64,000 nucleotides of DNA from a virus, in IMG/VR virus record IMGVR_UViG_3300032053_000042, positions 1 through 64,000 of that record, one strand, 5' to 3'. This document shows, piece by piece, positions 8,564 to 44,075 of the stretch (the stretch's first letter is position 1; each line of letters starts with the position of its first letter). A model generated the notes under the pieces. That model ran no database searches. It was not told where the DNA came from and saw only the letters and a list, made by a program, of their open reading frames with translations. The position numbers were made by a program, and so were the translations under genes.

Positions 8564-8835
8564 GGCAGCGTTACCTTCGTCACTTCGTCTATAGCCAGTT
8601 TGAAGACCGCATACTCACCCATCGGGAACCAATGAACGCCATGTTTAGCTGACTGCCATTCGAAGGTGATGTTTCCACAGCTATCCCACTCGGCTCCGTA
8701 TAATGGTGCGTACTTCTCACGCATTTCGAGGACGCAGGTAAGAAGGGTGTACTGTGGAGAGCTGTACTCTATGTGCTTATAGCCTTCAGCCCGTGCAAAG
8801 ATGTCCTCGAATACTAATCTATATTTTCGTTCCAT
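8560..8835 (-). CDS. Hypothetical protein
   Basis: SD AGGAG; translationally coupled. Confidence 0.5.
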   Translation of the reverse strand: MERKYRLVFEDIFARAEGYKHIEYSSPQYTLLTCVLEMREKYAPLYGAEWDSCGNITFEWQSAKHGVHWFPMGEYAVFKLAIDEVTKVTLP

Positions 8836-11303: not shown

Positions 11304-12182
11304 CTACTCCTCCTCGGTCGTCAACTGTACCACGTCTTGCTCGTCCTCTCGTAGCGTATGACCGATTCTACCAACGCAGAAGTCCTTGTACTGATCGATG
11401 TTCCACTGGATAACCGGATTCATTTGCACAGGCGTGAGGAAGTCAGCGTGGCGATGTCCCGCTACAGGAGGCGATACTGGCTCCGTCAGGCGTGGACTGT
11501 AAGTTCCTTGAATACCCCAACGTACTGGCAAGCCTGTATCCATCGAGCGTACGTAGGTTCGTGGCTGTACATACCAACCCTGCGAATACTCGTGACATTG
11601 ACAGCGAGTACTAAGCCCATAAGCTTCTCGCAGGTCCCGCCAGCAGCCCAGCATGTGGTATTGTCGATTGGGATCAATGAAGCCCATGTCTTCCAGCGAG
11701 TCTAGCAGACCAACGCGGCCGCCTTGGAATAAGTCCGAATCGAACATGGAGACACCAATGATATTAACTTCTGGTACTTGTAACAACCTTAAGTAACACA
11801 TCATCCAGTCTGCCACGTTAGATCCGTGTGGTACGGCTATAAGCTTAAAGTTAGGGGAGACAATCATCAAATGCTGGTATGCATCGAGACCTTTCACCGT
11901 AGCTTCATAGGAAGCCTGACCATCTCCTAGCACGTCTGGAAGGATAAACTCCTTAGCGTCCACCATCCCAGCTGCTATCGCGACCATAGAAACTGGTAAG
12001 CTTTTACCTTGTTCGACCACACCGTTATCCACACCAACGAGGACTCCTTGCCAGCTCTGTTGTTGGTAGAACTCTCGATACGCTTCGGACTCGAGAATGA
12101 GATGACTCAGGACAAGATGGTAGTTACCCTGTGCAGCGCATTGGTCTAGTAAGCTGATAGGTGAAGCAATTCCGCAAAGCAT
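11304..12182 (-). CDS. TGT-fold protein, DpdA-like deazaguanine transglycosylase candidate
   Basis: Ordered motifs VDNG..E, LPDVLGD, AVPHG, YHMLG, RSMDT match the TGT/DpdA barrel pattern; clustered with folE/queD/queE. Confidence 0.6.
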   Translation of the reverse strand: MLCGIASPISLLDQCAAQGNYHLVLSHLILESEAYREFYQQQSWQGVLVGVDNGVVEQGKSLPVSMVAIAAGMVDAKEFILPDVLGDGQASYEATVKGLDAYQHLMIVSPNFKLIAVPHGSNVADWMMCYLRLLQVPEVNIIGVSMFDSDLFQGGRVGLLDSLEDMGFIDPNRQYHMLGCWRDLREAYGLSTRCQCHEYSQGWYVQPRTYVRSMDTGLPVRWGIQGTYSPRLTEPVSPPVAGHRHADFLTPVQMNPVIQWNIDQYKDFCVGRIGHTLREDEQDVVQLTTEEE

Positions 12183-15573: not shown

Positions 15574-16185
15574 CTACCTCCGTAGGCTGGACTGATGAAC
15601 GAGACTCATGAACTCGTTACGAACTGCTACCTTTGAGAAGCACCCACGAAAGCCACTAGTGACTGTGAGATGCCCTGGACGCTCCACTCCACGAATGGCC
15701 ATGCACATGTGCTCAGCTTCGATCATTACTCCTACGCCATGCGGATGTAGCTGCTCCCACATAAACGTCGCGATCTTAGATGTTAGATCCTCTTGTATGG
15801 ATAGTCGATGGGCGTAGTGGTCTACAATACGAACTATCTTACTGATACCGCACACCGATAGCCACGGTAGATAGCCTACATGAGCATAGCCTACGTACGG
15901 TAGGCAGTGGTGTGCACATATCGACGCGAACTGGATATGAGTGACAGTTACCATTCCTGGGTCGTCACCGCGTCCTACCGGGAATACTGTAAAGTCGATG
16001 GGTTCCTGCTGCTTGGATAGGAACTCGATCATAGCGTCCGCAGCTCGCACTGCTGTGTTTTTGCCACTGGGACCGCTACACATAGCGGGAATCTCTTCAA
16101 TCTTGTATCCCAGAGCGTAGAGAAAGTCCTCGTAGGCCTTAATAGCTGCACCACGAGCGATACCGAGCGTTGGTTTGATTGTCAT
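15574..16185 (-). CDS. folE: GTP cyclohydrolase I
   Basis: SICAHHCLP, G.AHVGY, GISKIVR, QEDLT, HMCMAIRGV. Confidence 0.93.
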   Translation of the reverse strand: MTIKPTLGIARGAAIKAYEDFLYALGYKIEEIPAMCSGPSGKNTAVRAADAMIEFLSKQQEPIDFTVFPVGRGDDPGMVTVTHIQFASICAHHCLPYVGYAHVGYLPWLSVCGISKIVRIVDHYAHRLSIQEDLTSKIATFMWEQLHPHGVGVMIEAEHMCMAIRGVERPGHLTVTSGFRGCFSKVAVRNEFMSLVHQSSLRR

Positions 16186-16655
16186 AAGTATAGCTCCTGT
16201 GGTACATCGACCTCCACCCAACAGTCAGGGGTCTCCGATATTCGTACCATTACAAGTCGAACTGGATGGTAGACTTGCATCCTTGCCCTTAGCATGGTGA
16301 TAATCTCCTTAGCCATATTCTCAGCCGTTGGTGACTGAGAATGAAACTCGATGCAGTCGTTTAACAACTTATGATCGTAGTGAGCCTTTACCACCTCGAA
16401 GAGCCCCTTTAGTACACTGAAGTCTATAACCATTCCGTTCTTCAGAGGCCCTGCGACGCATACTTCGATAATGTAGTTGTGTCCATGCACGTTCCCGCAA
16501 TGTGGATGACCTGGCAAAAAGTGTGCACAGCTGATAACGAAGCGCCTCCATACTCGTACCTCAGAAGCCTTTGTGTACCTTACTTCTTCCTGTTGCATCA
16601 TAAGTGTTCCCAGCGAGATTGGTGTCTTTGAAGTCGACTCTGATACTTGTTCCAT
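16182..16655 (-). CDS. queD: 6-carboxytetrahydropterin synthase
   Basis: AHFL...C.NVHGHNY, GMVIDF, DHK.LN, PTAENMA, ETP. Confidence 0.92.
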   Translation of the reverse strand: MEQVSESTSKTPISLGTLMMQQEEVRYTKASEVRVWRRFVISCAHFLPGHPHCGNVHGHNYIIEVCVAGPLKNGMVIDFSVLKGLFEVVKAHYDHKLLNDCIEFHSQSPTAENMAKEIITMLRARMQVYHPVRLVMVRISETPDCWVEVDVPQELYL

Positions 16656-16667
16656 GTTTCTCCTTTC

Positions 16668-17294
16668 CTACCTTATTCCAATGAACTTATGTAACTGGAC
16701 GCTCAAACGCCAGTTCTTCTTGATACACTCCTCGTAGCACAGCTTAGTAGCCGAGGAATCTTGGCTCTCGGGCTGCAAGCAGATCGTTGCGTGTCCACGA
16801 AGAATGTGCTGGAGGTGGTCAATAAGAAACTGATTTACCAGGTCGAGATCCTCCTGAAAGCCTACGACAAACTTCAGCTCATCCGCCGTAAGTAAATTCG
16901 GGATAAGTATCCTGTTCCCGCCAGGAACATTAAGCTTAGGCGAGATGCAAACCCAGTCTATCCCACGAGGAATGGGAAGAGTACCGTTCGTTTCCAGAGC
17001 GGTGTTCCTCCCGATTGCATTTAGCTCGCTACACAGCTCGTCGAGAGGTTGCATGGTTGGCTCTCCTCCCGTGATCATCACCCACTGGATACCTGGAAAC
17101 TCTTTAACCTTCTCCACGATGGTTTCCACGTCCATTGCTACTCCACCCTTAGACCAAGTATACTTGGTATCGCAGAAACTACAGGTCAAGTTACACCCTT
17201 GCATTCGTATGATAACCATAGGAATGCCTGTATTACACCCCTCTCCCTGGACGGCACTGTAAATCTCGTTAATCTGATAGTAGAAACTAGGCAT
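16668..17294 (-). CDS. queE: 7-carboxy-7-deazaguanine synthase (radical SAM)
   Basis: QGEG, GCNLTCSFCDT, ITGGEP, ETNG, SPK, RLSVQLHK. Confidence 0.94.
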   Translation of the reverse strand: MPSFYYQINEIYSAVQGEGCNTGIPMVIIRMQGCNLTCSFCDTKYTWSKGGVAMDVETIVEKVKEFPGIQWVMITGGEPTMQPLDELCSELNAIGRNTALETNGTLPIPRGIDWVCISPKLNVPGGNRILIPNLLTADELKFVVGFQEDLDLVNQFLIDHLQHILRGHATICLQPESQDSSATKLCYEECIKKNWRLSVQLHKFIGIR

Positions 17295-28375: not shown

Positions 28376-30532
28376 CTACTTCAGTGCTACTACCTGGTCG
28401 TTGACCACGATGGTCTGTGGCATGACTACACCCAGGGACCTTTCGACTGCGGCGATCACACGTTCTTGTTGCTCGATAGCTGTCTCGAGCGCCTTGACCA
28501 AGGCGGCTTCAGGGCAATTACTAAGCAGCTTAGTCTGGCTGTTCGCGACCACAAGGTCCCACACATCCAACGCCGCCTTAGCTCGCTCCATAGCCGGATG
28601 CGTCTGCAGTTGAGCCTGTGCACGTCCTAGTACGGCCTTCAGATTGGTCAGCATGATATCCGCGTCCTCACGTCTCTTTGCTAGATTCACACTCATTATT
28701 GTTACCTCCTTTCGTAAGCTCGATTTCCACGACAAGAGCGTCGATTGATAAGCCTGCGTCTCGAACTCGTTCCTCGAGTAGTGTCAGCTGAGGCACGAAC
28801 TCGTACACTTCGAGAAGAGCCTTACTAGCCTGTTGTAGAGTTGTAAGCAGAGCTGCGTTACGCACGCGAACAGCGTCTGCCTGTGCGTCTTTCCACAGAG
28901 TCTGGAACTGCTTTATCGCAGAAGGTATTCCTCCGTGCCTCCACGTGGCAGCTAGTCGACGCTGCCAGTAGTTCCTCAGGTCGTCCCCGACTAGCACAGG
29001 TGCAGGTGTATTAGTTGCCATCTGTGGACTCCTCGGTCTCTAGCTTCTCGGTCTCTGGCTCAGGCGTAGGCGTCGGCTCAGGCCTAGCCAGGTTCGTGGC
29101 TTCACGTACTTGCAAGCCTATGTTGTAGCCGTGTTGCCAAGCGTTATCCCAGGACTTGTAGAACTCGGCCATAGCCCGGACGATACTAGTGTTAAGCCAC
29201 GCGTGTCGAGTAGCTTGCCAGTTAGCTTGTCGCTCAACTCTATCAGCTTGCGGTAGTTCGTGCTTCGGCATACTTAGCCTCCTTTCTCTTCGAGTGCTTG
29301 TACATACTCGTCGTAGATCTGCTTACCCACGTGCTTCTCAATGCCTGCGTGCTCCTCAATGTCCGTAGGACGGTGTGAGAGACTTTTCATTAGACGCTCT
29401 ACTCGTGGAAATGGTACATTGGAATCTGGAGCTAGAACTCCCTGTGTCTCTTCCATATCGAAATGCAGCTCGTTTCGCATTGCCGCCCGAATGAGTCCAG
29501 CATGGTACCGCATTCCAGAAACGTCAAGAGCCTCAAGGATATTGAGTATCATCTTGACAGTGTCCTTGAACGAGTAGGTGTTCATAGGCCACCAGCTGGA
29601 CATCACCCGGAGATTGAAGTCGTTTAACCACAGGCAGATGTGATGGTGGGCCTTACGGATATCCGCCTTCGCTAGGTGGCTCACTTTCTTGTCTTCGATC
29701 ATCCTAGCCAAGTAGTCGCGAGTCTGACGGAAGGCGTACATTAGTTGAGCCTGCTGTGGCTGAAGCTGAGGTTCTACTCCTAACATGGATTCAATACCTC
29801 CTCCGCTCGCTTAGCCTGCTCTTCCATTAGAGCTCTTGCTGCAGCTACTAGAATCTCAGATGTACTCGCGAGTCGATACTCGACGACGTCCTGGTCGCCT
29901 ACCGTACGGTTTATCTGGACGTATAGCGTAGGCGTCCAAAGGAATGTGCCATCGCATCCATCAGGAACGATGTGGTCCATCCAGTCGTCGTCCTCGTTGT
30001 CGTCAGGATCTCGCATATCGTTACATTCGGCTCCGTCTGCACAGTGTAGGCAGCCTTCGTCGCTAGGACAAGGCCATAGGAAACCTTCGTCGCCTGGGCG
30101 TTTGGGCTCGCTTGGTGCTAGCTCAAGTACAGGCCCAACGTAGGTCTGAGCCGCCCAGCCACCGGCGACACTGAACGCGTTACTGATAGCCTCTAAGGCG
30201 TCGTGGACTATCTTGTTAAGTTTGTCCCATATGTTAGGCTCTGGTACAAGCTCGTGTTGCTGGTCGTCCAGATTGCATTCACCAGCACCGTGGCACTTTG
30301 TACAGGCTGCGTCACAGGCCGCTTTGTCGTCCGTGAATTTCTGTAGCGCCACGATGTACTCATCTGGTAGGTTTGGTAGCGAAGCCTCAGGGTCTTCGTC
30401 TGGATGCTCCACAGGCTGTCTAGCTAGAGGGACATCATTGATGAGTTCTGTTAGAGCACACTCGCCTACGTCGTCACATTCGTCACAACTTCCGTCGCAG
30501 TCTTCTCGTTCTGGCTCTTGTTTTGCTGTCAT
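28376..30532 (-). CDS. Five small hypothetical early genes (28376-28696, 28668-29021, 29011-29271, 29274-29786, 29780-30532; the last is acidic and Cys-rich)
   Basis: Tightly packed ORFs with GGAG/GGAGG SDs; no recognisable family. Confidence 0.55.
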
Positions 30533-30578
30533 TGTCTTGCCTCCTCTCTTCTACTAGTACTATTACTATTACGACCAT

Positions 30579-30697
30579 TGCAGGCGTCGGGATTTGAACC
30601 CTTACTACATTATTTTAAGTCTTCTCCTCGCCGCTCGGCTTGAGGACTAGGAATATGCCTAGTGGACCTGCACGAAACCCGTCGTGCTCGCGCCTGC
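30579..30697 (-). ncRNA. Degenerate tRNA-like RNA
   Basis: GCAGGCG/CGCCTGC-A acceptor; GCACGA/TCGTGC; ACTAGG/CCTAGT; CCTC/GAGG; GGG-TTCAAAT-CCC T-arm; intergenic. Confidence 0.55.
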
Positions 30698-30703
30698 TCG
30701 TTA

Positions 30704-33363
30704 CTAATGAAACCGACCTATGGCCACTGCTAATCGAATGAAGGCGTAGAGGATAGCCACTACGCCAAGCGCTATAACCACGAACCACAGACATCCAACA
30801 CAACTTACACAGCCTTCGTAAGGTCGTGGGTCGTCGCCACAGAGCTCAGGGTTAGTCATAATGGTCCCTCCCAGGTCCTCGCCTCGGCTATACCTTGCTC
30901 GAGAAGGTCTATACACTCTTTAACCCAAGTAGGGGTCTGTGCCAACGGCTGCCGACGCTCAATTTCGTTTTGCACAATCTCATGTACCTCGTCGTTTCCT
31001 CGCTCGAGTATGTCGGCTAGCTGCTTAAGGGGAGCCTCTCGAATAGCTCTCGTAAAGAGCTCTCGCTGTCCATCTGGAGTGAGGCTCTCCACGATCTTGC
31101 GTGTCCAGGACCACAGGTAGTCGTGCATGAACTCTGACGCACTCTTGCTCATAATGGTCCCTCCCAGTGTGCTCGTTTCCAGTCTTCGAGCTGTAGGGTA
31201 AGTTCACGATTACGTGTTTCGAGTTCACAGCGCTGCCGAATGAGCTCGTCGATTCGAGCGTACAGATTGACCACACCCGTGTGGATGTCCAGCTCAGCCT
31301 TTGTGGCCGGATGATAGCGCGTTTCGGTACCGAATACTTCGCACACCATATAGATTCGATCGTCTGGTTGTGGCACAGGTTGTGGTACAGGTTGTGGCCT
31401 ATTAAGTACTCGTCGGAGAACTTCGTTGCTTTTCTGTAGCTCGCCTATGGTATACTCACGACTTCGTAGCGTATCAGTCAGCTTGTCCAGCTGGTCACGT
31501 AGTACAAGGTTGTTTAGGGCGTCGTTGTAGAAGCTAAGTGCTGGGCTCATGACTCCTCCTTGATATTGGTACAGCACTCGTTACACACTACTTTCCCATG
31601 TACCACCCTAGACCACCCTCTACTGTTAGGCGCTTCACTGGTCTTGCCGCACAAGACGCACGACAACCTTTGGGTGTTAGCGTATACTCTTGACGCCTGC
31701 CCAAGGCAAGCTACGCACATGTTTCTGTTACCTGCCTGTGTTGCAATCCAACCTAGCGTCTCTCCTTCGGGGATTGGTAGTTCGCAAACCCGACATATTC
31801 TACTTGTGTCGTCAATCCTGGAGGCAGGCTCATCGTGCTCCATCTCGTCGAGCATTCTGTATTCTTCTTCCGTTGGTGTCTTCGTACATCCAGGCGGCGG
31901 TACGATGTACTTTCTCATCCCTAGCTTGTGCGCCGCTGCCTCGATTTGAGCGTCGGTGGCTTGGCCAAACATTTCTGCGTTAAAGGCAGATGGTTTGAGC
32001 CATACATACAGCGTCTCGCCTGGCTCGCTAGTCGAGGCCAGCTTGGTAGCCTCGTCTAGACAGCATAATCGGTCACAGGCTTCACGAAGGGTTAACAACT
32101 TCGCTTTATAATTTACCAGTACCTGGACAATTGCCTGGTGAATCTCATTGGACGATTGGGCTGGCTCAGGTGTAGGCGCTGGTCGAAAGGCTTCTTCGAT
32201 ACGATGCTCGATCTCCTTCACAGCCCGCTCTCGGAAGGAGACGTCGTGCATGTCACCACGTGGAGTGTAGGCATGTGAAGCATACGTCACAAGTTCCCAG
32301 ATAGACATATCTGTGATAGGCTTATCGGATAGCGATAGCGTTTGCGGCTGATAGCCCCAGATAGTACGGTTACGCCAGTCTTCGAGTGCTTTGATTCGCT
32401 CCTCCTGAGCACCAAGACGCACGTCGCGCTCGTTTAGAGCCTCTGCGACCATCCGGTTAATAGTGTTGACGAGCTTTTCTGGGTCGAAGTCTGTCATTGT
32501 ATCCTCCTGCTCTTTCTATGGGTATTGATTTATCGTAACATTCTCTGCATCGATAAATGTTTCCATCATAACAACTAAATGTTACAATGACATCTGGCAT
32601 ACTAAGCACCTTTCCCCACAATCTGCACACCTACCTGAAGGAGTAGACTCTGACTGTGGTGCAGGCGTAGGTTCGGTAGGCTTGGACTCGACTGAAACTC
32701 GCTGGAGCGCTTCCATAGCAGTTTGTTGGGCCTTCTCGGCCTCGACTTTAGCCCACCACTCGTCGTTCAACTCGAGTAGACGAGCCTGGGTCATTTCGCC
32801 TCTGCTCTCGCCCTCACCAATGAACTGTACCTGATAGCCACCGAAGCGCTTGTGCCATTCTACTTGACGCTCTGGACGATGAGCTTCTAGGTCGCCTTTG
32901 GCAAAGCCTCCATCGCTGCACAGGTGGTTGGCTAGGCCTTCACCTGTCTCAGCGATAAGAGTGTAGAGTCCTTCGCCAAGGTCGTCAGGCCCAAGGATGT
33001 ATAGTTTCATCGCTGTCCTCCAGTTTCCTGTGGCCTGTGGGCCCGTAGTAAGCGCAGGTATGAGATGGTCTCACGAACTCTAGGCAATTGAAGCTCTGTA
33101 CCTAGGTCTTCCCAGACGAGCTGGAACTTAGGGTCGTTGGAGACGATGCGCGCTAGGCCTTCCTGGTTATGGTACAGTAGACGCGTTGAGTATCTTGGCA
33201 TCTCCTTGATAGAAGTCGGCCAAGTCTGCTGGCGACCACACAGAGCTTGCCAGGCTAGATAACGCGCTTGGCTAGGGGACTTTGCAATGACCAGCTCTTT
33301 GACTGTCGAGAATGTCTCGCGAACTAGGTACAGGTTAAGGTTAAGGCCAGAGTTGAGTTTCAT
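30704..33363 (-). CDS. Six hypothetical early genes (30704-30859, 30856-31152, 31149-31550, 31547-32497, 32582-33010, 33007-33363)
   Basis: Mostly ATGA-coupled ORFs; 31547-32497 ends in tandem CxxC Zn-finger motifs. Confidence 0.55.
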
Positions 33364-33944
33364 TTTGAAACTCCCTGGGAGCCTTCCATAGTATCCTGTG
33401 CGACCTCTGCGCGTTCGATGTGCTCGCTGGTTGCTGCTTGCTCTCGTGCAATCAGTTCACGATCGGCCACACAGGCCATGCAGGTAGCGCGCAAGCCGTC
33501 GTCTTCATATGCGTCGACTTCGAAGGCACTAATAGGTTTGGCCTGGCCACAGGCGGCGCAGTGTTTGACTAGCTCGATGCCCTCTGCATCCGCTTTTGCC
33601 CATCGGCGTTTGAACTTGAACAGGAACTGGTACTTTCGTGAAGCTCTAGATGGTGCGTCTTCTCCTTCCTTCGAAATGAATCCGCCTAGCACAGGTGCAG
33701 ACTCGGTCTTGATAGGAAATACGTCTTGGAGAACTCGTACGTCGATAGCGTTCTGAGCTTTCTCCATAAAGTAGCAGACGATACAGGTGTCCTCTAGGCC
33801 GTCCTCGATTAGGTTACTGATAGCGAACTCAGTAACGGGCTTTGCGGTTTGACAGAGAACGCACTGCTTAACTACTACTTTATCCTGTGCTCCAGCCTCG
33901 CGCCGCTTTCGTTGCAGCTCAATGAGTTGAGTACTATTTAGCAT
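33360..33944 (-). CDS. Protein with two repeated CxxC...CxxC Zn fingers
   Basis: KQCVLC..AKP...F....DGL..TC..C and KHCAAC..AKP...F....DGL..TC..C. Confidence 0.65.
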   Translation of the reverse strand: MLNSTQLIELQRKRREAGAQDKVVVKQCVLCQTAKPVTEFAISNLIEDGLEDTCIVCYFMEKAQNAIDVRVLQDVFPIKTESAPVLGGFISKEGEDAPSRASRKYQFLFKFKRRWAKADAEGIELVKHCAACGQAKPISAFEVDAYEDDGLRATCMACVADRELIAREQAATSEHIERAEVAQDTMEGSQGVSK

Positions 33945-33957
33945 TGTTGAGCCTCCT

Positions 33958-33992
33958 TTCGTTCGTTCGTTCGTTCGTTCGTTCGTTCGTTC
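33958..33992 (-). repeat. (CGAA)n tetranucleotide repeat, about 8 copies, abutting an SD
   Basis: ttcgttcg... run directly upstream of AGGAGG on the minus strand. Confidence 0.9.
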
Positions 33993-34107
33993 TCGGCCCG
34001 TACACGACTATCGATTTCACGCCGAGCCTGCTTGTGCGCCCCTCGAATAGCGAATTAGCTTGATTAGGGCCCGTGCGCGTGCACCCGAACTAACTTAAAC
34101 TGTCCTT

Positions 34108-34136
34108 ATTATACATTATTTCAAACCAAAAGTCTA
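34108..34136 (-). promoter_or_regulatory. Sigma70-type early promoter
   Basis: TAGACT-17 bp (..GAAATAATG)-TATAAT. Confidence 0.75.
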
Positions 34137-35136
34137 CGTACCAACGAGGCAATTTCGAGTTTTCGCGCAGCGCAAAATGTATTTGATTTTTAGGGTAGTA
34201 GGATGTCAACTTAAATAGTAGGGCGACACAGTTGGTGTATGCTGGGCACATCTATATGCCATACTCTAGTCGGCTGAAGCGTTCAAGGATATGGATATGT
34301 GTGTTATATCACTCTACTTGCCACATTTTGACTTTAGATGCCATACGGCGTTATCTAGTGTACGTGGCCCAGGATTGCACAGGTGGTTAGCATTGGCACT
34401 CTGGAATGGCATCAAAGGGTTCGGTCGAAAGCCACCAAGTATAAAATACCGCAAGGACTTGGCAACGGGCGTTATCGAGTGAGCTTTCCGTAATGCCATG
34501 TGGATCCTACATGTCCCAAAGTCTAGACATAATAGGTCTAAATTAGAATAGTGAGTATAAAGGGGTCCCCCTATATACACGCTTTTAGAACCTACAAAAT
34601 CTATTTAGTTGAGGGTTCGAATCTAGGAATATACATACATATATACACATATCTATATATATATATATCTATATCCTTATATGCTTACTAGTGGCGCTCT
34701 GGTGATTGTAGCGATTGGCCGTGTATGTATGTGTGAAAACGTATAAAAAACAGCAAGGGCAATCCACGGCTCCGAACCTAAGTTATAGCTCCATTCGATT
34801 TGAGTCCTCGGTGAATTGTAGATGGGATCAATGAAGTTCGCAATTTTTGGAAAGTGGACTTGTCCATGATCTTTCCCTTTTGCGATTCTTATACACCCTG
34901 TTGGCACCCTGTTGGTCTCGGCGCCTTTCGTGTTCGGGTGGACAAACTCGCTATACCCCTTCCATAGGCGACTCGCCCTGGGCTTGCCTACGGTACCAAT
35001 CATGAAAGACATGCACTGTGATGTGCCCAGAAAGAGTACATACTCCGTGTTACCCCGTGGGCGCCCTGTATCAGGCGTTCGCGCACGAGGACTGACCTAG
35101 GGCTCTGACGTGAACTGGCGCTTCGTACATCGACAA

Positions 35137-35173
35137 AGGAAAAGGCGCCAGCCAATTTCTTGGCTGACGCCCT
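35137..35173 (-). terminator. Intrinsic terminator
   Basis: GGCGTCAGCCAA-GAAA-TTGGCTGGCGCC followed by TTTTCCTTT, downstream of 35193..35669. Confidence 0.75.
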
Positions 35174-35192
35174 ACCTCTCTGAGGCGTCGGA

Positions 35193-35669
35193 CTAGAGCT
35201 TGTTGAGCAAATTGCTGAAGTCCGCTGGTACTGCGGGCTCGGTGGTCACGACGGTCTCACCGGGCTCGTTGTCGTCCTCAGCGTCTTCAATCTCTGTATC
35301 GCCTGCTGGGTTAGCCGCGGCCTCGGCTAAAGCCTTCTCGGTCAGGCTGGCGATAATCGCGTTCAAGACCTGGATGGTAGTAGCCTGGGCAGGTCCTACG
35401 GCGATCAGATCCTGTACGAGTTTCTTGGTTGCACGTGCGTGACGAAGCTGGGTGCCAGAGCTGACACCGGCTGCACGAGCCTCACCGCGCTCGGGCGGGA
35501 CGAACTTGGCCAGAGAGGCCTCTTCGAGTAGCAGATGGCCCATCTCATCGCGGACCCACGCAATACTGCCTGCGTGGACGTACTGACGAGTTCGCGCTGT
35601 GCTGCGACCGATCTTGGTGGCTGCCTGTCGTAGCGTAACATAACCTTGCTTACCTGTAGCTGCTGACAT
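35193..35669 (-). CDS. HTH DNA-binding protein (paralogue of 41047..41475)
   Basis: YVTLRQAA..IGRS..RTRQ....G. Confidence 0.6.
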   Translation of the reverse strand: MSAATGKQGYVTLRQAATKIGRSTARTRQYVHAGSIAWVRDEMGHLLLEEASLAKFVPPERGEARAAGVSSGTQLRHARATKKLVQDLIAVGPAQATTIQVLNAIIASLTEKALAEAAANPAGDTEIEDAEDDNEPGETVVTTEPAVPADFSNLLNKL

Positions 35670-35805
35670 AGTTGTGTAGCCTCCTTCGTGTGTACTGTAA
35701 CTTATGGTAGCCTGGCCTTGCTGACCAGCGAGCCTCGAACCAGAAAGCGTGTGCGTTTATTTCATTGATGCCCTCCTTTTGCTTACTGTTCAATCTTACC
35801 TATAT

Positions 35806-35834
35806 AGCATACAACATTTCAGATTGAAAGTCCA
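35806..35834 (-). promoter_or_regulatory. Sigma70-type early promoter
   Basis: TGGACT-17 bp (..GAAATGTTG)-TATGCT. Confidence 0.6.
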
Positions 35835-35927
35835 CGTAACAACGTCGATTTTTCGGATTTTGCGTAGCGCAGTATTTCAGGTTATTAAGGTGCTACCACA
35901 AACTCACCTAGCGCCTTCCATATGGTC

Positions 35928-37203
35928 CTAGCGATTAGCGGTGTAGCAGTTGAGCCCGAGCTTGACCTCTGGCCGCCCAGGAACTGGGACGTTACCACTA
36001 GTGGTGGCAATCATCAGCGACTTGCCAGAGCCGCTAGGGGTCTTGGCAACTTTGTCGAGCTCTATCTCGATGATGAGCTTCGAGCCTTGCAGGGACATCT
36101 TGATGTTGCTCTGTGGTGTAAGTGTTTCCATGTTACCTCCTTTCGTTAGGAATCGAAACTCGCGTAGCGCCTTCCATATGGGCAAGCCTCTGACTTCCAG
36201 GCACGCCCAGCCCCTAGCCCTAAGGTCCTGTCCGTTCAATCTAGGTGGCGCGTGTATGGGCCCCTCGCTAGGAGAGGCCCATCGTATCCGACGCCTAGGC
36301 GACGTAGAAGCTGGTCATCCAGCGTTCGTGGATCAGGTGCAAGACGTCCGGACCATCCCATCTGGTGATAGCACCGTGACCGTATTGTTGCGCGTCAATC
36401 GCCTTATTCAGAAGGCGGTTGCGCTGAACTCCTAGAGTAGCAGGCGGAGCCCAGCTTTCCACGAGCTTGAATCCATCGATGACTCGGAAGATCTGGTAGC
36501 CTTTGAATGGTTTGCACATGTTAGCGGGTTTCCTCCTTCAGTATCTCACCACAAGCTTGGCAGACCTTATATGAGTGGTGCCCACTGTGGAGCCACTTGT
36601 AGCTCGTGTGTGGACAGGTTTGACGCTCCATCGACGCGCCCTGGGCCTTCTTCGTGGCCATGACGAACTTACGACGATAGCTGGTTCGCGTGCTCACTCT
36701 GTGCCTCCTTAACTGTTGTGATGTCGACGCTTACGCACTGGCCTGTGGTTGGGTGGGCCATTGTAGCACAGGAGACCCTACCGTCAGCCTTGGTGCACCA
36801 GTTGATCTTGTAGCCCTTAGCCTTCAGGGCCTCGACTAGCTGGTCAACCACGGTGTAGGCCTCGGCTAAGGTTGTGACCTCCTTGAGCTCGTTGCCTTTC
36901 GTACCTGTGGCATGAAGACGTACTTGGATCATGTTACCTCCTTTCTTCGTGGGTTTCTGAGCGCGCTTCGATAGCGATGGCCAGTAGCTCGTTGGTCGAG
37001 AAGTCGTGAGGAGCTACTTCTAGTATGGCCATATGTACGACTATTTCTTCGAGTACTCCTTTAGGGGAGTTACGAAAGCCGAGATGTAGATGCTGGTACT
37101 CCTTGTAGTAGGCAGCATAGAACGCGTCGAACTCGACTGCGTACGTGGCAAGGATGCTACGTGTGGCGGTCCACGGCTTTCTAGGAACCTGTGGTAAGTT
37201 CAC
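35928..37203 (-). CDS. Four small hypothetical genes (35928-36131, 36295-36519, 36669-36932, 36934-37203)
   Basis: Each has a GGAG(G) SD; no function recognised. Confidence 0.5.
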
Positions 37204-37550
37204 TTAACTCCTCGGTAGCCCAGGCTCTGTACGACAAGAGCAGCCTGTGTAATAGCAAGCTGCTCGACGTTCAGTATCTTCTCTTTCGACTTAGCTGTAG
37301 TCGTACGCCACCCACCACAGTAGAACATGTTACGGATGCACCCGGTTTTGAGGTCTAGTAAGCGTACGCGGTCCCAACCGTAGCTGTGCCTGTATGTACC
37401 ATCCTCTTGTCGCGTACTCCACTTCCGGATAGCCACAAACTTGTAGCCTCGTTTCGTAGCGCGCTGGATGTACTTCTCCAGTTCTGCTTGTAGGTCCTTT
37501 TGGTACTGCTCACCTTCGGACCACCCTTCATGACGCTGTAGCTTACTCAT
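37200..37550 (-). CDS. Early paralogue family member 1
   Basis: GW...L.KYI.RA.KRG...KW.T...RV.LLD.KTG..R..FYCGG. Confidence 0.65.
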   Translation of the reverse strand: MSKLQRHEGWSEGEQYQKDLQAELEKYIQRATKRGYKFVAIRKWSTRQEDGTYRHSYGWDRVRLLDLKTGCIRNMFYCGGWRTTTAKSKEKILNVEQLAITQAALVVQSLGYRGVK

Positions 37551-37663
37551 GCTGCTCCTTTTCTGGTCTCTGGTTTGTGAGAACACGACACATAGTAGGA
37601 AAGAGATGGGTCACATTCATGTACGCTCCTTTCTAATACTCACTATCCAATCGTTACAAAGTT

Positions 37664-37692
37664 AGTATACATTATTTTGGGAAAAAAGTCCA
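37664..37692 (-). promoter_or_regulatory. Sigma70-type early promoter
   Basis: TGGACT-17 bp (..AAAATAATG)-TATACT. Confidence 0.7.
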
Positions 37693-38305
37693 CCAACCTC
37701 GGCATGTTCCGGTCAGCGTGGTTTTCTTGCAGAGGAACAAACTATAGCGCTGGTTCCAGCCGGGCCTTTTCTTGGTACCACAAACTCTGGTAACTGTTCC
37801 ACCGGGGCGGATTGTGGGTACGTGAGATCTAAGCGCTATAGACTCTTGAGCTGGTTCCAGCGGGACCAGAAAGTGGGCACGACAAACTCAAGCGCTGGTT
37901 CCACCCGGACCTGAATCTTGTCACCTGGAAAGTTGGTACCTACGCAAGGGATCCGAGGGGCGAGGTGAGCGTTATGGAAGCCCTAGGCTATCTGGGAGTA
38001 TAGGTCGAGACGCCACAATAAAGTGCACTAGCTACTCTAGGGCATCGTTTTGTACCAAGCGATCTAACTATGTTGCTAGTTCCAGCGGCGGGAGATCCGG
38101 TCACCACTTGCCAAGGCGCTGGTACCTGCCGGTACGGGACTTTGGTCCTACTTTTAGGAATGTTGAAAAAGTGGTACCAACGAGGAGGCGGTTTTGGTAC
38201 CAATAACGCCAATTGGATGGTACCAACTTGGAAGCGAGGAAGGGTCCGGTAGCAGAAGGCCGCCTAGGTCAATTCCTAGGCGACCTTAGAAGTGGTTAGT
38301 CGTTA

Positions 38306-38734
38306 CTACTTAACCTCTTCTGGAGGTATACATTCGATGCAAGTACCCTTGGTGCAACCTTCGCAAGGTTCGTCTGGATTAGGGCCAATCGCTCCTAGGA
38401 TCTTCTTTGACCAGGCCCTCGCTTCGTCGTGCCGTTTCTCCAGGTACTTATGAAGCTTGACTAATCCTTCAACGACTATAACTTCGGGTTGCTTCCGAAC
38501 CAGGTTCCCGTAGTAGTTCTGGACAATCTGTTGGCAGTAGCGAAGTATTCGTACGTTCTCGGGTGTGGGAATACTAAGCGCCTTGTCCATGGCTTCCTCT
38601 TGTTCTCGTACGTAGGTATAGAACTGCTTCATTGCTTCTGTTCCTGATAGCTGCTCCACAAATAGCTCGATCAATTGTTGGAGCTCATGCTGCATGGCCG
38701 ATATTCTTGTCGTTTCGCTCATTCCGGTTTCCAC
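38306..38734 (-). CDS. Hypothetical protein with C-terminal CxxC..C..C
   Basis: Shares RBS module AAAGGAGCAAACGAAC with the upstream gene. Confidence 0.55.
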   Translation of the reverse strand: METGMSETTRISAMQHELQQLIELFVEQLSGTEAMKQFYTYVREQEEAMDKALSIPTPENVRILRYCQQIVQNYYGNLVRKQPEVIVVEGLVKLHKYLEKRHDEARAWSKKILGAIGPNPDEPCEGCTKGTCIECIPPEEVK

Positions 38735-38794
38735 GTTCGTTTGCTCCTTTTGTTTGGCCTGGGCGACTTTTGGTCACCCAGGCTTTGGTTAAGG

Positions 38795-39160
38795 CTAGTT
38801 AGCCGCTGGGAACATCTTATGGATCTCTTCTTCTAAGGTTCCTGGAAATAGTGCTTCGGCACCTCCTTCGTGCCTACGAACTAGGCCTGCCATTCTAGAT
38901 GCGTCTGTTGCTGGTAGGTCCTTTCCGGCTTTGCTCCATCCTCCGCAGTAGAAAAGGTTGCGCTGGATTCCGGTCTTGCAATCCAAAAGGCGCACTCGAT
39001 TGGTGTGGTGCGGACGATAGTGGTCATAAGAAATGGTATTCCAAGTCTTAACCACTACAAAGTACCAACCTCGTTTACTTGCACGCAGAATATACTTGTC
39101 CAGTTCTGGCTGCAAGTTTTCCTTGAATACTCCTACAAACCATCCTTCTTCGCGCTCCAT
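38795..39160 (-). CDS. Early paralogue family member 2
   Basis: EGW...LDKYILRASKRG...RVRLLDCKTG.QRNLFYCGGW. Confidence 0.65.
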   Translation of the reverse strand: MEREEGWFVGVFKENLQPELDKYILRASKRGWYFVVVKTWNTISYDHYRPHHTNRVRLLDCKTGIQRNLFYCGGWSKAGKDLPATDASRMAGLVRRHEGGAEALFPGTLEEEIHKMFPAAN

Positions 39161-39271
39161 GTTCGTTTGCTCCTTTGTTCTAGTGCACACAATGTTTGGG
39201 ACATGATCTTGGAACCAATTTAATAGTGTTATTAACTTATTGGCTTATCCTTTCTTAACTATTATATAGGT

Positions 39272-39300
39272 ATTATACATTATTTCCGATAAAAAGTCAA
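39272..39300 (-). promoter_or_regulatory. Strong sigma70-type promoter (leftward)
   Basis: TTGACT-TTTTATCGGAAATAATG-TATAAT. Confidence 0.85.
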
Positions 39301-39533
39301 CGAACCTGTGCTAGTTCTGGACAGAGTAAAATATGATCAGATCAACAAACTCTGGTAGCTGTTCCAGAGGGTCATGGATTTAGAACCAAGTAACAGCGTA
39401 ACAATTTATAATGGATATAGAAGTTGATACCACTTGCCATATCGTTGGTACCAACACATGGAGAAGTTGTTGGCGAGTAGTAACAGGATTTGATTCTTAT
39501 ATTTTGCTGAGCGCGTGCCGACACGTTGTTACG

Positions 39534-39562
39534 TTGACTTTTAGTTTGAAATAATGTATACT
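39534..39562 (+). promoter_or_regulatory. Strong sigma70-type promoter (rightward)
   Basis: TTGACT-TTTAGTTTGAAATAATG-TATACT. Confidence 0.85.
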
Positions 39563-39703
39563 ATATTTAGATTAACATGAAGTTAATCAACTTAATAGTG
39601 TTAAGAAAGAGAGTGACAATAAGTTTAGTAACAAAACATTTTCTCAAGTCATACAGTTCTTGTAGAGTCGAAAGAGTCACAACAGAACAGAGGAGAGCAC
39701 AAA

Positions 39704-40024
39704 ATGCAGTTCGACAAAAAGATCTTAACAGAGTTACAAGAGAAGTCAATAAAGTTCTATCAGCTGACAAAAGAGCAGATAGTACAGTGGTCAACTAAAG
39801 AAGCAGGTAGCTGGATTGCACATCCTGAAACAGTAGTTGCTGCTTATGCTGCTGAGAGAAATAATGTTGACTTCATCGTTATTGCACAGTTCGATGATAA
39901 TGCTTTCATGGTCTTCACTGAAGGTGTCAACATTCAAGAAGAACTCTGTTATGAAGAGTACGATGAGTTAGTTGCACTGAATCAGTGGTACGTAGTAGTT
40001 AATGAGTACTTTCTCAGTAACTAA
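39704..40024 (+). CDS. Small acidic early protein
   Basis: AGGAG SD, own promoter and terminator; about 18 D/E versus 7 K/R. Confidence 0.65.
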   Translation: MQFDKKILTELQEKSIKFYQLTKEQIVQWSTKEAGSWIAHPETVVAAYAAERNNVDFIVIAQFDDNAFMVFTEGVNIQEELCYEEYDELVALNQWYVVVNEYFLSN

Positions 40025-40047
40025 GTAACTGTAGAGCAGAGTTAAGA

Positions 40048-40081
40048 AGAGTACAGAGTTGAGCAATCGATTCTGTACTCT
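40048..40081 (+). terminator. Terminator-like hairpin
   Basis: AGAGTACAGAGTTGA-GCAA-TCGATTCTGTACTCT then CTTTATGT. Confidence 0.65.
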
Positions 40082-40698
40082 CTTTATGTCTGTTACTAAT
40101 TGCCATCGAGCGATAGATTCGTGAGCTGGTTCCAGCGAGAAATTATCTTGACAATTGAAAAGATGTTAATCGATATTGAAAGATTGAAACTCTAGTAGCT
40201 GTAGAGGTTGTTGGTGACAATTGCCAAGCAACCTGTGGGACTGATAACTCTGATCCTGGTTCCAGCGACGGAAGTTCTTTAGGACTCGGAATCGTGCTGA
40301 TTCAAAAAGTGGTTCCAGCGCAGGGTGTCTGAGTTGACTTGATTTCGATGGTAATCGAACTAGATATCTAGATAGATTGAGACCAGCGATGATCGACTGG
40401 TCCCAATGAGTATAATAGTACTAGCTGATCTTGGCTGGTTGGCAACCTGTGGGACAATAAACTATGGAGCTGGTTCCAGTGATGATAAAGAAGTTGTTGA
40501 GATGATTATGAGGGTGGTTCCAGTGATGAGTGAAATAGTGTTAATAGAGATGTTAGTGATTGTGAGGGTGGTTCCAGAGGGTATTGTGATGTTGCGCGTC
40601 GTCGAAAAAACAACAAAAAACAATAACTAGCTAAACCCGACCAAACAAAAACCTAAAATAAAATAAAAGAATATAAAAAATGTGAAAAATCTTTGATC

Positions 40699-40872
40699 GG
40701 ATTACTTCGAGGATACTTTGAGTAACTGGATTACTTCGAGGATACTTCGAGTAACTGGATTACTTCGAGGATACTTCGAGTAACTGGATTACTTCGAGGA
40801 TACTTCGAGTAACTGGATTACTTCGAGGATACTTCGAGTAACTGGATTACTTCGAGGATACTTCAAGTAATT
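40699..40872. repeat. Tandem repeat, 6 x 29 bp (GGATTACTTCGAGGATACTTCGAGTAACT)
   Basis: Four identical central copies, first and last slightly degenerate; no spacers. Confidence 0.95.
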
Positions 40873-40894
40873 GGGTTACTTGTAAAACTCCCTA

Positions 40895-40923
40895 TTGACA
40901 ATTTTTTTGATTGGGTATATAAT
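40895..40923 (+). promoter_or_regulatory. Perfect consensus sigma70 promoter
   Basis: TTGACA-17 bp-TATAAT. Confidence 0.88.
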
Positions 40924-41046
40924 GATCGTGTCGGCCAGGATAGCAAAAAAAGATTGGGGTGAAAAAAATATAATAGACCGTAAAGCAATTAAAAAAGCGT
41001 ATATGGCGCACAAAAACCGTGTCTAAACAGTAAAAGAAGGGATAAA

Positions 41047-41564: not shown

Positions 41565-41777
41565 ATGTACACGTTAAAAGAGGCCTCAGAAGTAACTGGT
41601 ATCAGTATCTATCGGATTAGAGCAATGGTATTGTCAGGAACGATAACAGGCGCAGTAAAAGTAGGTAATACCATAATGCTTACGGAAAAGACGGTCAGAT
41701 ACATATACAACGTACAAAAAGCGGTTCGGATATACAATCAAGTAATATCCGATGGTAAGCAAGGGAGAAACCAATGA
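41565..41777 (+). CDS. Small HTH protein
   Basis: YTLKEASEVTGIS..RIR.M...G.I.GA.KVG. Confidence 0.65.
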   Translation: MYTLKEASEVTGISIYRIRAMVLSGTITGAVKVGNTIMLTEKTVRYIYNVQKAVRIYNQVISDGKQGRNQ

Positions 41778-42085
41778 ATATCGCAACATATACCCAAACC
41801 TATAGAAATAATAGGAATGGATGGGTAGGAACGGAATTAGACCGTATAGAGCTTTGGAGTAACTTGATGCAATATGTAGAAAAAGCAGCCAAACGTGGAG
41901 TATGCTATACGGTAGGTATGCAATGGCACGTACACACGGGAGAAGGTACATATAGACCTATAACCTATAATTATGTAGAATTGTTGGCAATGTGGGGTGA
42001 AGGTGTAGTAAACCGTATTATACTACGCTGTTACATATATATTATAGGTGATATAGTAGTAAAATGGAGTAGAATATATAGATAA
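41774..42085 (+). CDS. Early paralogue family member 3
   Basis: RNGW...L.QYVEKAAKRG..Y....QWH.H. Confidence 0.6.
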   Translation: MNIATYTQTYRNNRNGWVGTELDRIELWSNLMQYVEKAAKRGVCYTVGMQWHVHTGEGTYRPITYNYVELLAMWGEGVVNRIILRCYIYIIGDIVVKWSRIYR

Positions 42086-42105
42086 TATAGAATAGATAGA
42101 TAAAC

Positions 42106-42591
42106 AGAGCGTAGTATAATCAGCGATACTACGCTCTCATAGAATAGGTTGATGTAGTAATCAGTAGTAATAAACAAGGAGAAAAGTGAAAGTTGTAAAA
42201 GAGAACTCAAAGCGTCATAACGGATGGGATGCGGATGTAGAATATGGGAAAGAACTTGTATGTAAACTCATATTATACATAGATAGAGCAAAAAACAGGG
42301 GTTATACCTACTCTATTATAAGCAAATGGCATACACACGTGAAACGTCAAGTACGTGGAATAGAGTATAGAGGAATTTGGCATTATACTACTAGTGTTGA
42401 CAAAGAGGTAATTATCTATAACAGAGTAGAATTAGTTGACAGGTGTACAAAAAAACACGTTAAACTGTTTTTCTATACAGGCGGTAGCAATAATACAGGT
42501 AATATGACAGGCAGATGGAAAAGACAATAAAATAATAATAAATAGGTAAACAAATAGAGCGTAGTATAATCAGCGATACTACGCTCTCATA
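42106..42591 (+). repeat. Identical 36-bp hairpin direct repeats (42106-42141, 42556-42591)
   Basis: AGAGCGTAGTAT-AATCAGCG-ATACTACGCTCT-CATA twice. Confidence 0.9.
42186..42530 (+). CDS. Early paralogue family member 4
   Basis: RHNGW...L.LYIDRAKNRG...KWHTH...RVELVD..T....LFFYTGG. Confidence 0.6.
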   Translation: MKVVKENSKRHNGWDADVEYGKELVCKLILYIDRAKNRGYTYSIISKWHTHVKRQVRGIEYRGIWHYTTSVDKEVIIYNRVELVDRCTKKHVKLFFYTGGSNNTGNMTGRWKRQ

Positions 42592-43124: not shown

Positions 43125-44075
43125 ATGCTAGACATCGCCACACTTAGGCAGCGTCAGAGCTTACCTTTGGAAGCAAAGGTCATGATGTCTCTACACAAGA
43201 TCAGGGAATGGTACGACCGCTGGCGTGGTCAAGTGTACGTTGCGTACAGCGGCGGTAAGGACAGCACAGTACTACTTCACCTAGTACGACAGTTTTACCC
43301 AGAAGTTCCTGCAGTGTTCAACAATACGGGCCTAGAGTACCCAGAAATCTTGGAACAGGTACGTGGCACAGAAAGCGTTGTATGGCTAAGGCCGAAGTAC
43401 TCATTTAAGGAGTGTTGCACCCGATGGGGTTTTCCAGCAGTAAGCAAAGAGGTATCTGACAAGGTACAACGTATCAGGAACACGAAGGACGAGCAGCTAA
43501 GGCAGCTATGGATGTACGGCAGGAATGACCAGGGAAGAACGACGATATTACGATTAAGCGATAAATGGCATTTTCTATTGCAGGCCCCGTTTAAGATAAG
43601 TCCTAATTGCTGTATACATCTAAAGAAGAATCCAGCTAAGCATTATGAGGGAGAAACCGGCTTGTGGCCGATGTTAGGTACACTAGCAGAGGAAAGCCTA
43701 GGACGCACAACGGAATACCTCCGCTTTGGTTGTAATAATTATACTAATAGCCGACCTAAAAGCACTCCGTTAGGCTTCTGGACAGAGCAGGATATACTAC
43801 AATATATTACACGGGAAGGGCTAAAGATTGCAGCAGTTTATGGCGACATAGTAGAGACCGATGGCCGTCTTCGTTGCATAGGCGAAGACAGAACTGGATG
43901 TATAGCGTGTCCCTTTGGTTGCCACGCTGGAGTACAAAACAGTTTTCAACGAATGGCCATAACTAAGCCGAAGTTACTTAACTGGATACTCGATGACCTA
44001 AGTATGCGACAAGTTCTTGACTTTACTGGAATTCCCTACACGGCACAGGATGTAGGATCTGAAGCTACATACTAG
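43125..44075 (+). CDS. PAPS-reductase-family PP-loop protein with Fe-S-type cysteines
   Basis: AYSGGKDS, NTGLEYPE, CC..LKK.P, P..FWTEQD, RTGC.AC.FG. Confidence 0.85.
   Translation: MLDIATLRQRQSLPLEAKVMMSLHKIREWYDRWRGQVYVAYSGGKDSTVLLHLVRQFYPEVPAVFNNTGLEYPEILEQVRGTESVVWLRPKYSFKECCTRWGFPAVSKEVSDKVQRIRNTKDEQLRQLWMYGRNDQGRTTILRLSDKWHFLLQAPFKISPNCCIHLKKNPAKHYEGETGLWPMLGTLAEESLGRTTEYLRFGCNNYTNSRPKSTPLGFWTEQDILQYITREGLKIAAVYGDIVETDGRLRCIGEDRTGCIACPFGCHAGVQNSFQRMAITKPKLLNWILDDLSMRQVLDFTGIPYTAQDVGSEATY

Follow-up and report, generated by a model that had tools for sequence, protein, structure and literature searches.

Our analysis revealed that one early expression unit of an uncultured sediment phage is purged of the dinucleotides GG and CC, and that this purge is real, extreme and specific. 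The ban concerns GG/CC only, is a property of the slot that the unit occupies, acts on DNA, and is most simply explained by selection. We consider it likely that selection on duplex DNA keeps the whole unit, which is self-contained and swappable, free of GG/CC. That the cassette evolved invisibility to a reader of GG/CC, as a preliminary description of this DNA had proposed, is supported and extended here. Avoidance of short motifs is already known from phages, either as a weak bias across the whole genome or where a leading region has lost a few restriction sites; new here is a two-letter step removed to the theoretical limit from one unit, shaping protein composition and re-imposed on whichever gene fills the slot.

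The unit lies in a linear IMG/VR record of 76,123 bp (CheckV completeness 91%, no end repeats), of which bases 1–64,000 form the stretch analysed here, hereafter the window. Two arms of genes diverge at ~39.3–39.5 kb, within a mosaic early region of low GC (34–39%). Two family-A DNA polymerases, a ligase, a PD-(D/E)XK nuclease, FolE, QueD and QueE are among the genes of the leftward arm, and a PAPS-reductase-like protein, the large terminase and a glycosyltransferase block among those of the rightward arm. The locus shows traits like those of a leading region, namely sigma-70-type promoters and strain-variable units, then a non-coding repeat stretch: positions 40100–41046 (~950 bp), after the unit, hold arrays of boxes and a 29-bp tandem repeat in six copies. 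The contig breakpoints of relatives, as calculated from the locus coordinates, are arbitrary. Megablast of the region against a phage GenBank collection gave no match, and Rfam and tRNA scans of the region returned nothing. Feature coordinates are collected in Table 1.

Table 1 Features of the purged unit, its surroundings and the deazaguanine genes, in window coordinates unless a contig is named.
Feature	Position	Strand	Basis and remarks
DpdA (DNA guanine transglycosylase) homologue	11304..12182	-	tblastn; Atlas lead to PF23859
FolE, QueD and QueE genes (7-deazaguanine precursor)	15574..17294	-	Pfam
Closest paralogue of the cassette promoter	34107..34146	-	Retains two GGs absent from the cassette promoter
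Left GGTWCC cluster, 9 sites	37752..38224	+	Non-coding spacer
Divergent leftward paralogous early promoter, TTGACT-17-TATAAT (predicted)	39272..39300	-	Contains GG/CC
GG/CC-free zone	39519..40102	.	8 GG/CC in 584 bp, all forced by SD or codons
Sigma-70-type promoter of the unit, TTGACT-17-TATACT (predicted)	39534..39562	+	Consensus scan and alignment with three leftward paralogues
5' leader, ~135 nt	39569..39703	+	Start inferred from promoter; matches L066 until just past the SD
106-aa ORF (allele 1), acidic ORFan	39704..40024	+	pI 4.26, net charge -11, Gly 1.9%, Pro 0.9%
Intrinsic terminator	40048..40095	+	15-pair stem (40048–40081), 4-nt loop, T-rich tail; GG/CC absent; kept in L066
Right GGTTCC cluster, 6 boxes, all in + orientation	40128..40575	+	Non-coding stretch 3' of terminator
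Allele 2 ORF, 182 aa, acidic ORFan	L066 9309–9857		pI 4.9, net charge -14

The GG/CC-free zone, bounded by a CC on either side (39518 and 40103), contains 7 GG and 1 CC where ~36 are expected, and it harbours the four longest GG/CC-free gaps of the 76,123-bp genome (174, 116, 97 and 86 bp). The preliminary description had counted 7 GG and 1 CC in 560 bp, which is exact for 39541–40100 (GG at 39692, 39789, 39806, 39813, 39910, 39923 and 39987; CC at 39824). Base composition predicts 36.5 GG+CC for this interval, and its observed/expected ratio of 0.21–0.22 makes it the lowest 560-bp window genome-wide (mean 0.87, sd 0.13). At a size of 300 bp, the zone again supplies both of the lowest windows (0.17 and 0.25), and the next lowest in the genome is 0.42. 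The few dinucleotides that remain had been attributed to the Shine–Dalgarno sequence (SD) or to forced codons, and this attribution is correct: one belongs to the SD GGAG, three to Trp TGG, two to Gly GGT and one to an ATG|GTC (Met–Val) junction, and the single CC belongs to Pro CCT. The terminator stem is without either step, as had been stated. The rest of the genome holds ~8,600 GG/CC, and the immediate flanks of the unit are rich in them.

Controls at the level of codons place the 106-aa ORF at its floor, its 7 GG+CC being the dynamic-programming minimum for any coding of the protein. Resampling with the codon usage of the genome gave 24.4 ± 3.2, resampling with that of low-GC neighbours gave 16.9 ± 2.8, and permutation of the ORF's own codons gave 14.1 ± 1.7; under each of these three models, none of 20,000 samples was as low as 7, and the depletion is significant given base and amino-acid composition. 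The non-coding parts follow suit, with one GG/CC in the 5' 185 bp of the unit (9.0 expected, P = 4e-4) and none in its 3' 78 bp (5.3 expected, P = 0.002). An avoidable-use index, defined as (observed - minimum)/(uniform - minimum) and computed for 94 ORFs of the genome, is 0.00 for the 106-aa ORF, compared to 0.80 on average (sd 0.20) and 0.35 for the next-lowest ORF. The Gly+Pro content of the 106-aa protein (2.8%) is also the genome's lowest (mean 12.2%, next-lowest 6.2%). GG/CC are rarer here than in composition-, codon- and amino-acid-matched controls alike.

Within this allele (allele 1), the GC step occurs at a normal frequency (13 vs 13.2 expected), CG is moderately depleted and AT somewhat depleted. 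Since the palindromes GTAC, TCGA, GATC and ACGT are frequent both here and in the second allele described below, the purge is not a general avoidance of restriction sites, a candidate explanation that we rejected given this plenty of palindromes lacking GG/CC. A general avoidance of steps between G/C and G/C was likewise rejected, GC being normal and CG normal in allele 2.

The GG/CC-free zone coincides with a single predicted transcription unit, which is monocistronic, with its terminator directly 3' of the ORF and no aca-type HTH repressor gene. The leader, which has a fold z-score of -2.57, contains a sole GG, that of the SD (39692–39695). The cassette promoter is one of four paralogous early promoters, and while the three leftward copies contain GG/CC, the cassette copy has none. 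Among 37 nt, it departs from its closest paralogue (34146 to 34107) in three, two of which each cost it a GG (39529 and 39543), one by G to A and the other by a transversion, G to T. These two positions are 5' of the transcription start deduced from the promoter, which argues for a constraint on DNA rather than RNA. Other early units with the same promoter family are unpurged.

A scan of metagenome contigs with the cassette promoter recovered two contigs, L067 and L066. The former represents the same phage (98.8% identical) and carries an identical cassette. The latter is 94–99% identical to the window over 28656–40551 and retains the promoter, leader, SD and terminator of the unit, but between flanks of 95–99% identity its ORF is unrelated: the swap is ORF-precise, starting directly past the SD and ending shortly ahead of the terminator. 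BLASTP found no similarity between the resulting 182-aa protein and the 106-aa protein. An independent sediment run also yielded contigs with the allele 2 junction at 39703. With promoter and terminator conserved on either side of an ORF that is replaced between close relatives, the unit fits a PeSL-type pattern.

Allele 2 is purged as well. It contains 14 GG/CC against a minimum of 10, whereas three models predict 31.0 ± 2.9, 34.1 ± 4.6 and 47.4 ± 5.3 (none of 4,000 samples was as low as 14), and it forms the lowest GG/CC zone of its contig. All six of its CC are Pro codons, and its four avoidable GGs all fall within GAGG(T/A), which may mean that the ban covers a narrower word than GG. Allele 2 has ~44% GC and no depletion of CG (30 vs 25 expected), whereas allele 1 has ~37% GC and is CG-poor; with the alleles differing in both respects, their sole common peculiarity is the GG/CC ban. 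In allele 2 the missing steps are replaced by many CG, GT and AC steps. Of the invisibility attributed to the cassette, the core therefore stands, there being no avoidable GG/CC in the first ORF and both a second, unrelated allele and the promoter being purged; as for candidate readers, general avoidance of restriction sites is unlikely.

The means of the purge is visible at codon junctions. We considered codons with a synonymous choice and asked how often a G- or C-ending form is used when the next codon begins with that letter, and how often before other codons. G-ending codons precede G-starting codons in 0/24 cases in allele 1 and 2/49 in allele 2, compared to 18/43 and 37/79 before other codons; for C the corresponding values are 0/10 and 0/32, compared to 20/64 and 28/115. 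Pooled, these amount to 2/115 versus 103/301 (Fisher P = 6e-15), while in large genes elsewhere in the genome the difference is only 30% versus 35%.

Could the pattern be a passive relic, brought in with an ORF from a GG/CC-poor donor genome or arising by chance? The unit does sit in a low-GC, mosaic early region, and both alleles are ORFans. Yet two unrelated alleles of differing base composition share only the GG/CC ban, the purge extends to the leader, terminator and promoter, which belong to the phage itself, and the count equals the theoretical minimum, leaving import or chance extremely improbable.

GG and CC are each depleted independently on the same strand, a symmetry expected of duplex DNA, and we therefore read the constraint as acting on DNA. 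An RNA-level constraint, under which a transcript without GG/CC would escape an RNase or an RNA-binding repressor, avoid internal sequences resembling SD or anti-SD, or stay unstructured for fast translation, appears improbable to us. Such a constraint is consistent with the coincidence of zone and transcription unit, with the SD as the only non-coding GG, and with the confinement of allele 2's avoidable GGs to GAGG(T/A). It sits poorly with the independent depletion of GG and CC and with the purging, relative to the paralogues, of a promoter upstream of the inferred start. The mRNA is also no less structured than codon-permuted versions (-148.9 vs -139.9 ± 4.9 kcal/mol), and GG/CC count is uncorrelated with folding energy; the idea of an unstructured mRNA was rejected, as the native transcript folds slightly better than its permuted counterparts. 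By our estimate, the z-score of -4 for the transcript against shuffles appears largely due to the terminator hairpin.

Mutation rather than selection might also erase these steps. A CC-preferring activity resembling that of a cytosine deaminase, acting on a highly transcribed unit, would remove non-essential CC/GG, and by turning GGN into GAN it would yield acidic proteins poor in Gly as a side effect. Several features are in line with this: AG+CT are in excess in allele 1 (54 vs 44.8 ± 2.3), the coding strand has a G>C skew, both alleles encode acidic products with little Gly and Pro, and one of the two promoter GG losses is G to A. However, the other promoter change is a transversion, the replacements in allele 2 extend beyond transition products to many CG, GT and AC steps, and the SD has been preserved together with all three Trp TGG codons and the two long ORFs. 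Nor is there an effect on neighbouring units that share the promoter family, and we know of no local CC-specific mutator in phages or bacteria. We regard hypermutation as quite unlikely.

The product of the unit is, as had been described, small and acidic. Searches returned no homologue of the 106-aa protein but itself (5.8e9 clusters; HMMER against 1.84e9 representatives), and the homologue search with the 182-aa protein likewise returned only the query. Neither protein has a Pfam, PADLOC or significant PHROG match, and no similarity to known Acr proteins was found. Structure models are of low confidence (pLDDT 57 for allele 1 and 35 for allele 2, the latter unusable), and fold searches with them gave best structural matches of Z <= 4.1 and Foldseek E >= 0.14; Atlas structure neighbours include clusters of immunity proteins at a TM of only 0.5–0.6. 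An early promoter, a strain-specific swap of ORFans and mild acidity would fit a role of these proteins in host takeover or counter-defence, though mild acidity by itself is weak evidence for the inhibitor role that had been proposed.

A ban of this kind implies a molecular reader of GG/CC that acts at the very start of infection. We tentatively favour, as a possibility short of even odds, the phage's own enzyme: a DpdA-type exchange of guanine for 7-deazaguanine at a short motif containing GG. The genome encodes FolE, QueD and QueE (Pfam GTP_cyclohydroI 5.7e-47, PTPS 2.8e-31 and Radical_SAM 2.5e-15) and a DpdA homologue, and the 'GG-specific DNA modifier' named among the candidate readers in the preliminary description gains weight from their presence. 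This gene set is rare, making its occurrence in the same genome as the purge informative. By tblastn, the DpdA homologue is distantly but significantly related to enzymes of phages with deazaguanine gene sets: it hits a protein annotated as 'DNA guanine transglycosylase' in Flavobacterium phage immuto (3e-9 over 75% of the query) as well as phiST and the Campylobacter phages CP20 and CPt10, at an identity of only 24–27%; it has no Pfam match in our local copy and no PDB sequence match. A recognisable QueC is absent from the deazaguanine system of this phage.

The DpdA of phage CAjan targets GA plus GGC. Motifs of two to three nucleotides are typical of the characterised DpdAs, with two target motifs for the CAjan enzyme (PMC7544227) and GA for that of phage iggy (PMC10484667). 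In the present phage, the slot itself is likely a self-contained immediate-early unit, in which a sigma-70 promoter and a leader of 135 nt with its SD precede a single ORF and an intrinsic terminator, and which strains of the same phage fill with unrelated small acidic ORFan proteins. Selection on it likely works via synonymous choice at codon junctions, proteins poor in Gly and Pro, and changes in the non-transcribed promoter. Under the DpdA hypothesis, the slot would be the only part of the injected genome almost devoid of modified bases, which host RNA polymerase could read at once and at full efficiency, modification presumably hampering early reading elsewhere; the strain-differing product would then act in host takeover or counter-defence.

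Comparisons with other phages bear on this DpdA hypothesis from both sides. Four relatives (terL 45–49% identical) are without FolE, and no purged island occurs along the full length of their genomes, in a comparison of only four genomes that differ in much else. A GG/CC-poor zone of the relatives L002/L003 is GCGC-rich, codes for Ala and Arg and lies within codon permutation (P = 0.15), and was not considered analogous; a zone at 67–69 kb of the relative G002 is only moderately poor (index 0.4–0.6). Two cultured phages with distant DpdA homologues count against the hypothesis: phiST has no sharp island in its whole genome, whose 30% GC makes detection weak, and Youna2 has none in the first 50 of its 52.9 kb. 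Viral contigs scanned for sequence patterns gave only chance matches for the promoter family and nothing for the leader, and scans for close relatives using neighbouring genes, terL and DpdA returned nothing.

Other observations also weigh against a DpdA as the reader. GG as the target motif of the candidate enzyme is something that we only infer, and the restriction of allele 2's avoidable GGs to GAGG(T/A) could mean a narrower word. Sibling early units driven by the same promoter family are unpurged, so a need of host polymerase for unmodified DNA cannot be general. We found no published evidence for deazaguanine bases hindering transcription. More tentatively still, we propose as a wider rule that guanine-hypermodifying phages may keep a modification-free window by purging the dinucleotide that their DpdA targets (here GG) from an immediate-early slot with exchangeable genes, with effects reaching codon junctions, the amino acids used and the promoter. 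If true, this would amount to a new rule, a self-exemption of first-read genes from the phage's own epigenetic armour; the motif of such an enzyme would be predictable from bare sequence, and the slot would lend itself to a test of 7-deazaguanine DNA against host transcription.

The alternative is a reader that belongs to the host. In that case the slot would encode counter-defence proteins, and its DNA would lack GG/CC so that a host system could not bind it, cut it or take spacers from it before the product is made. Candidate readers are CC PAMs (types I-F, I-B and I-A), NGG (type II) and enzymes with sites containing GG/CC, and the unit may be in the first-injected region. PAM recognition is the best-known two-letter reading of duplex DNA. 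For phages, depletion of PAMs across the genome has been documented (PMC4246573, PMC12174588), and Autographiviridae phages escape type I RM when the motif is missing only from their first-injected region (PMC12455610), a variable region rich in anti-defence genes that provides an experimental precedent (PMC12455610). The locus also resembles an arms race, with unrelated acidic ORFans swapped between strains that are 94–99% identical, and the ~950-bp non-coding repeat stretch after the unit recalls the long non-coding region after the first-step-transfer (FST) DNA of T5/BF23 (PMC10644984).

However, GG/CC abound in the rest of the genome and in the flanks of the unit, and a local ban would protect only if injection is staged, if repair occurs or if infecting phages cooperate. 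Restriction palindromes lacking GG/CC show no avoidance, and a host reader leaves the presence of the rare deazaguanine gene set unexplained. We consider such a reader rather unlikely and prefer self-exemption from the phage's own DpdA over a host PAM or restriction reader. Should a host system nonetheless read GG/CC, the slot would mark a set of new counter-defence proteins and 'protecting the protector' would be visible in sequence.

Several known systems share parts of this pattern. The acr loci of Mu-like Pseudomonas phages combine a strong early promoter with small, unrelated ORFans that differ between near-identical phages. Unlike them, the slot has no aca-type repressor gene in its unit, and its proteins have no homology to known Acr. 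PeSL cassettes of T4-type phages have conserved promoter/terminator modules that flank novel ORFs inserted, deleted or replaced between close phages, as in the slot; in contrast, a dinucleotide ban is not mentioned in the portions of the PeSL papers available to us, and the swap in the slot is ORF-precise, from after the SD to before the terminator (PMC2839356, PMC4122927).

FST DNA of T5/BF23 and the leading region of Autographiviridae resemble the slot in that a DNA word present elsewhere is absent locally from an early variable region, where it decides the outcome in those phages, and in that a long non-coding repeat region follows (PMC12455610, PMC10644984). In those phages the word is a defined restriction site of 6–13 bp and the region is known to enter first, whereas in the slot a dinucleotide is at its theoretical minimum on both strands of one ~0.6-kb unit with GG/CC-rich flanks. 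PAM depletion in phages is also avoidance of a very short motif, CC/GG included (CC being the type I-F PAM), and is also credited to a DNA reader; as published it is described for whole genomes, while that of the slot is absolute, limited to one unit and overrides amino-acid usage, the rest of the genome having an observed/expected ratio of ~0.87 (PMC4246573, PMC12174588). Like the proposed reader, the DpdAs of CAjan and iggy read a G-containing motif of 2–3 nt on duplex DNA; we found no description of a motif-free island in those phages, and the present phage differs in its putative GG motif and in lacking a recognisable QueC (PMC7544227, PMC10484667).

The GGTWCC-rich clusters noted on both sides of the unit are real, clustered and polar, with nine sites on the left and six on the right, all GGTTCC on the + strand. 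The window contains 95 GGTWCC matches, compared to 50 ± 8 expected. The boxes are deletion or recombination joints in strain variants: one strain lacks 38185–39468 by a deletion between two GGTACCAAC boxes, and L066 lacks ~37802–39344 by a deletion between two boxes of the AAACTCTGGTA type.

The entire early region differs among strains in a mosaic fashion: in another sediment sample, unrelated DNA of 358–679 bp stands in place of window 40582–40962, 41737–42086 and 42171–42538. Within this strain-mosaic region, the GG/CC purge was found solely in the 39519–40102 slot. Strains also differ by the loss of early units between repeated boxes. One strain variant lacks window 38185–39468, a loss of whole early units between repeated GGTACCAAC boxes, and L066, the contig of a near-identical phage that carries the second allele of the slot, lacks window 37802–39344, an early-unit deletion bounded by repeated AAACTCTGGTA(A/G)CTGTTCCA boxes. 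Because these deletions run between repeated boxes, the polar box arrays are the joints at which recombination removes or adds modules.

All four of the avoidable GGs remaining in the second allele (L066 9395, 9527, 9634 and 9757) sit within GAGG(T/A), which is also the context of the Shine-Dalgarno; the word under ban may be narrower than GG. Positions 8600–9300 of L002, a relative (IMGVR_UViG_3300033141_002949), are GCGC-rich (GC+CG o/e 1.7–1.8, GG/CC o/e 0.24–0.47) and encode small Ala/Arg-rich ORFs, with a tandem repeat and promoter just downstream; we rejected this stretch as a purged zone since amino-acid and codon content account for its depletion. The longest GG/CC-free gap in the deazaguanine phage phiST of Cellulophaga (443 bp, 32848–33291), of uncertain significance in a genome of 30% GC, falls within the gene for a 720-aa hypothetical protein with just 4.2% Gly+Pro.

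Upstream of its promoter, L002 carries a different repeat, in three copies, at the same position as the window phage's tandem array (see table).

Features of the early region and adjacent genes in the window
Feature	Position	Strand	Remark
29-bp unit, 6 tandem copies	40699–40872		directly upstream of rightward-arm promoter
Perfect consensus promoter, TTGACA-17-TATAAT (predicted from sequence)	40895–40923		start of rightward gene arm
Small early protein, paralogue group of four	37200–37586	-	left of divergence point
Small early protein, paralogue group of four	38795–39190	-	left of divergence point
Small early protein, paralogue group of four	41774–42085	+	right of divergence point
Small early protein, paralogue group of four	42186–42530	+	right of divergence point
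PAPS-reductase-domain protein	43125–44075		between early genes and terminase

The four paralogous small early proteins matched no family; translations compared by eye, unaligned, apparently share an EGW...RA.KRGY plus FYCGGW-type pattern. Each of the two leftward genes has a paralogous promoter, and the rightward genes are each followed by one of two near-identical bidirectional terminators (42106–42137 and 42556–42587). The N-terminal part of the PAPS-reductase-domain protein is similar to BrxP, SspD and DndC (PADLOC, BrxP 1.3e-15), and this protein could provide a second DNA-modification activity or substitute for the missing QueC.
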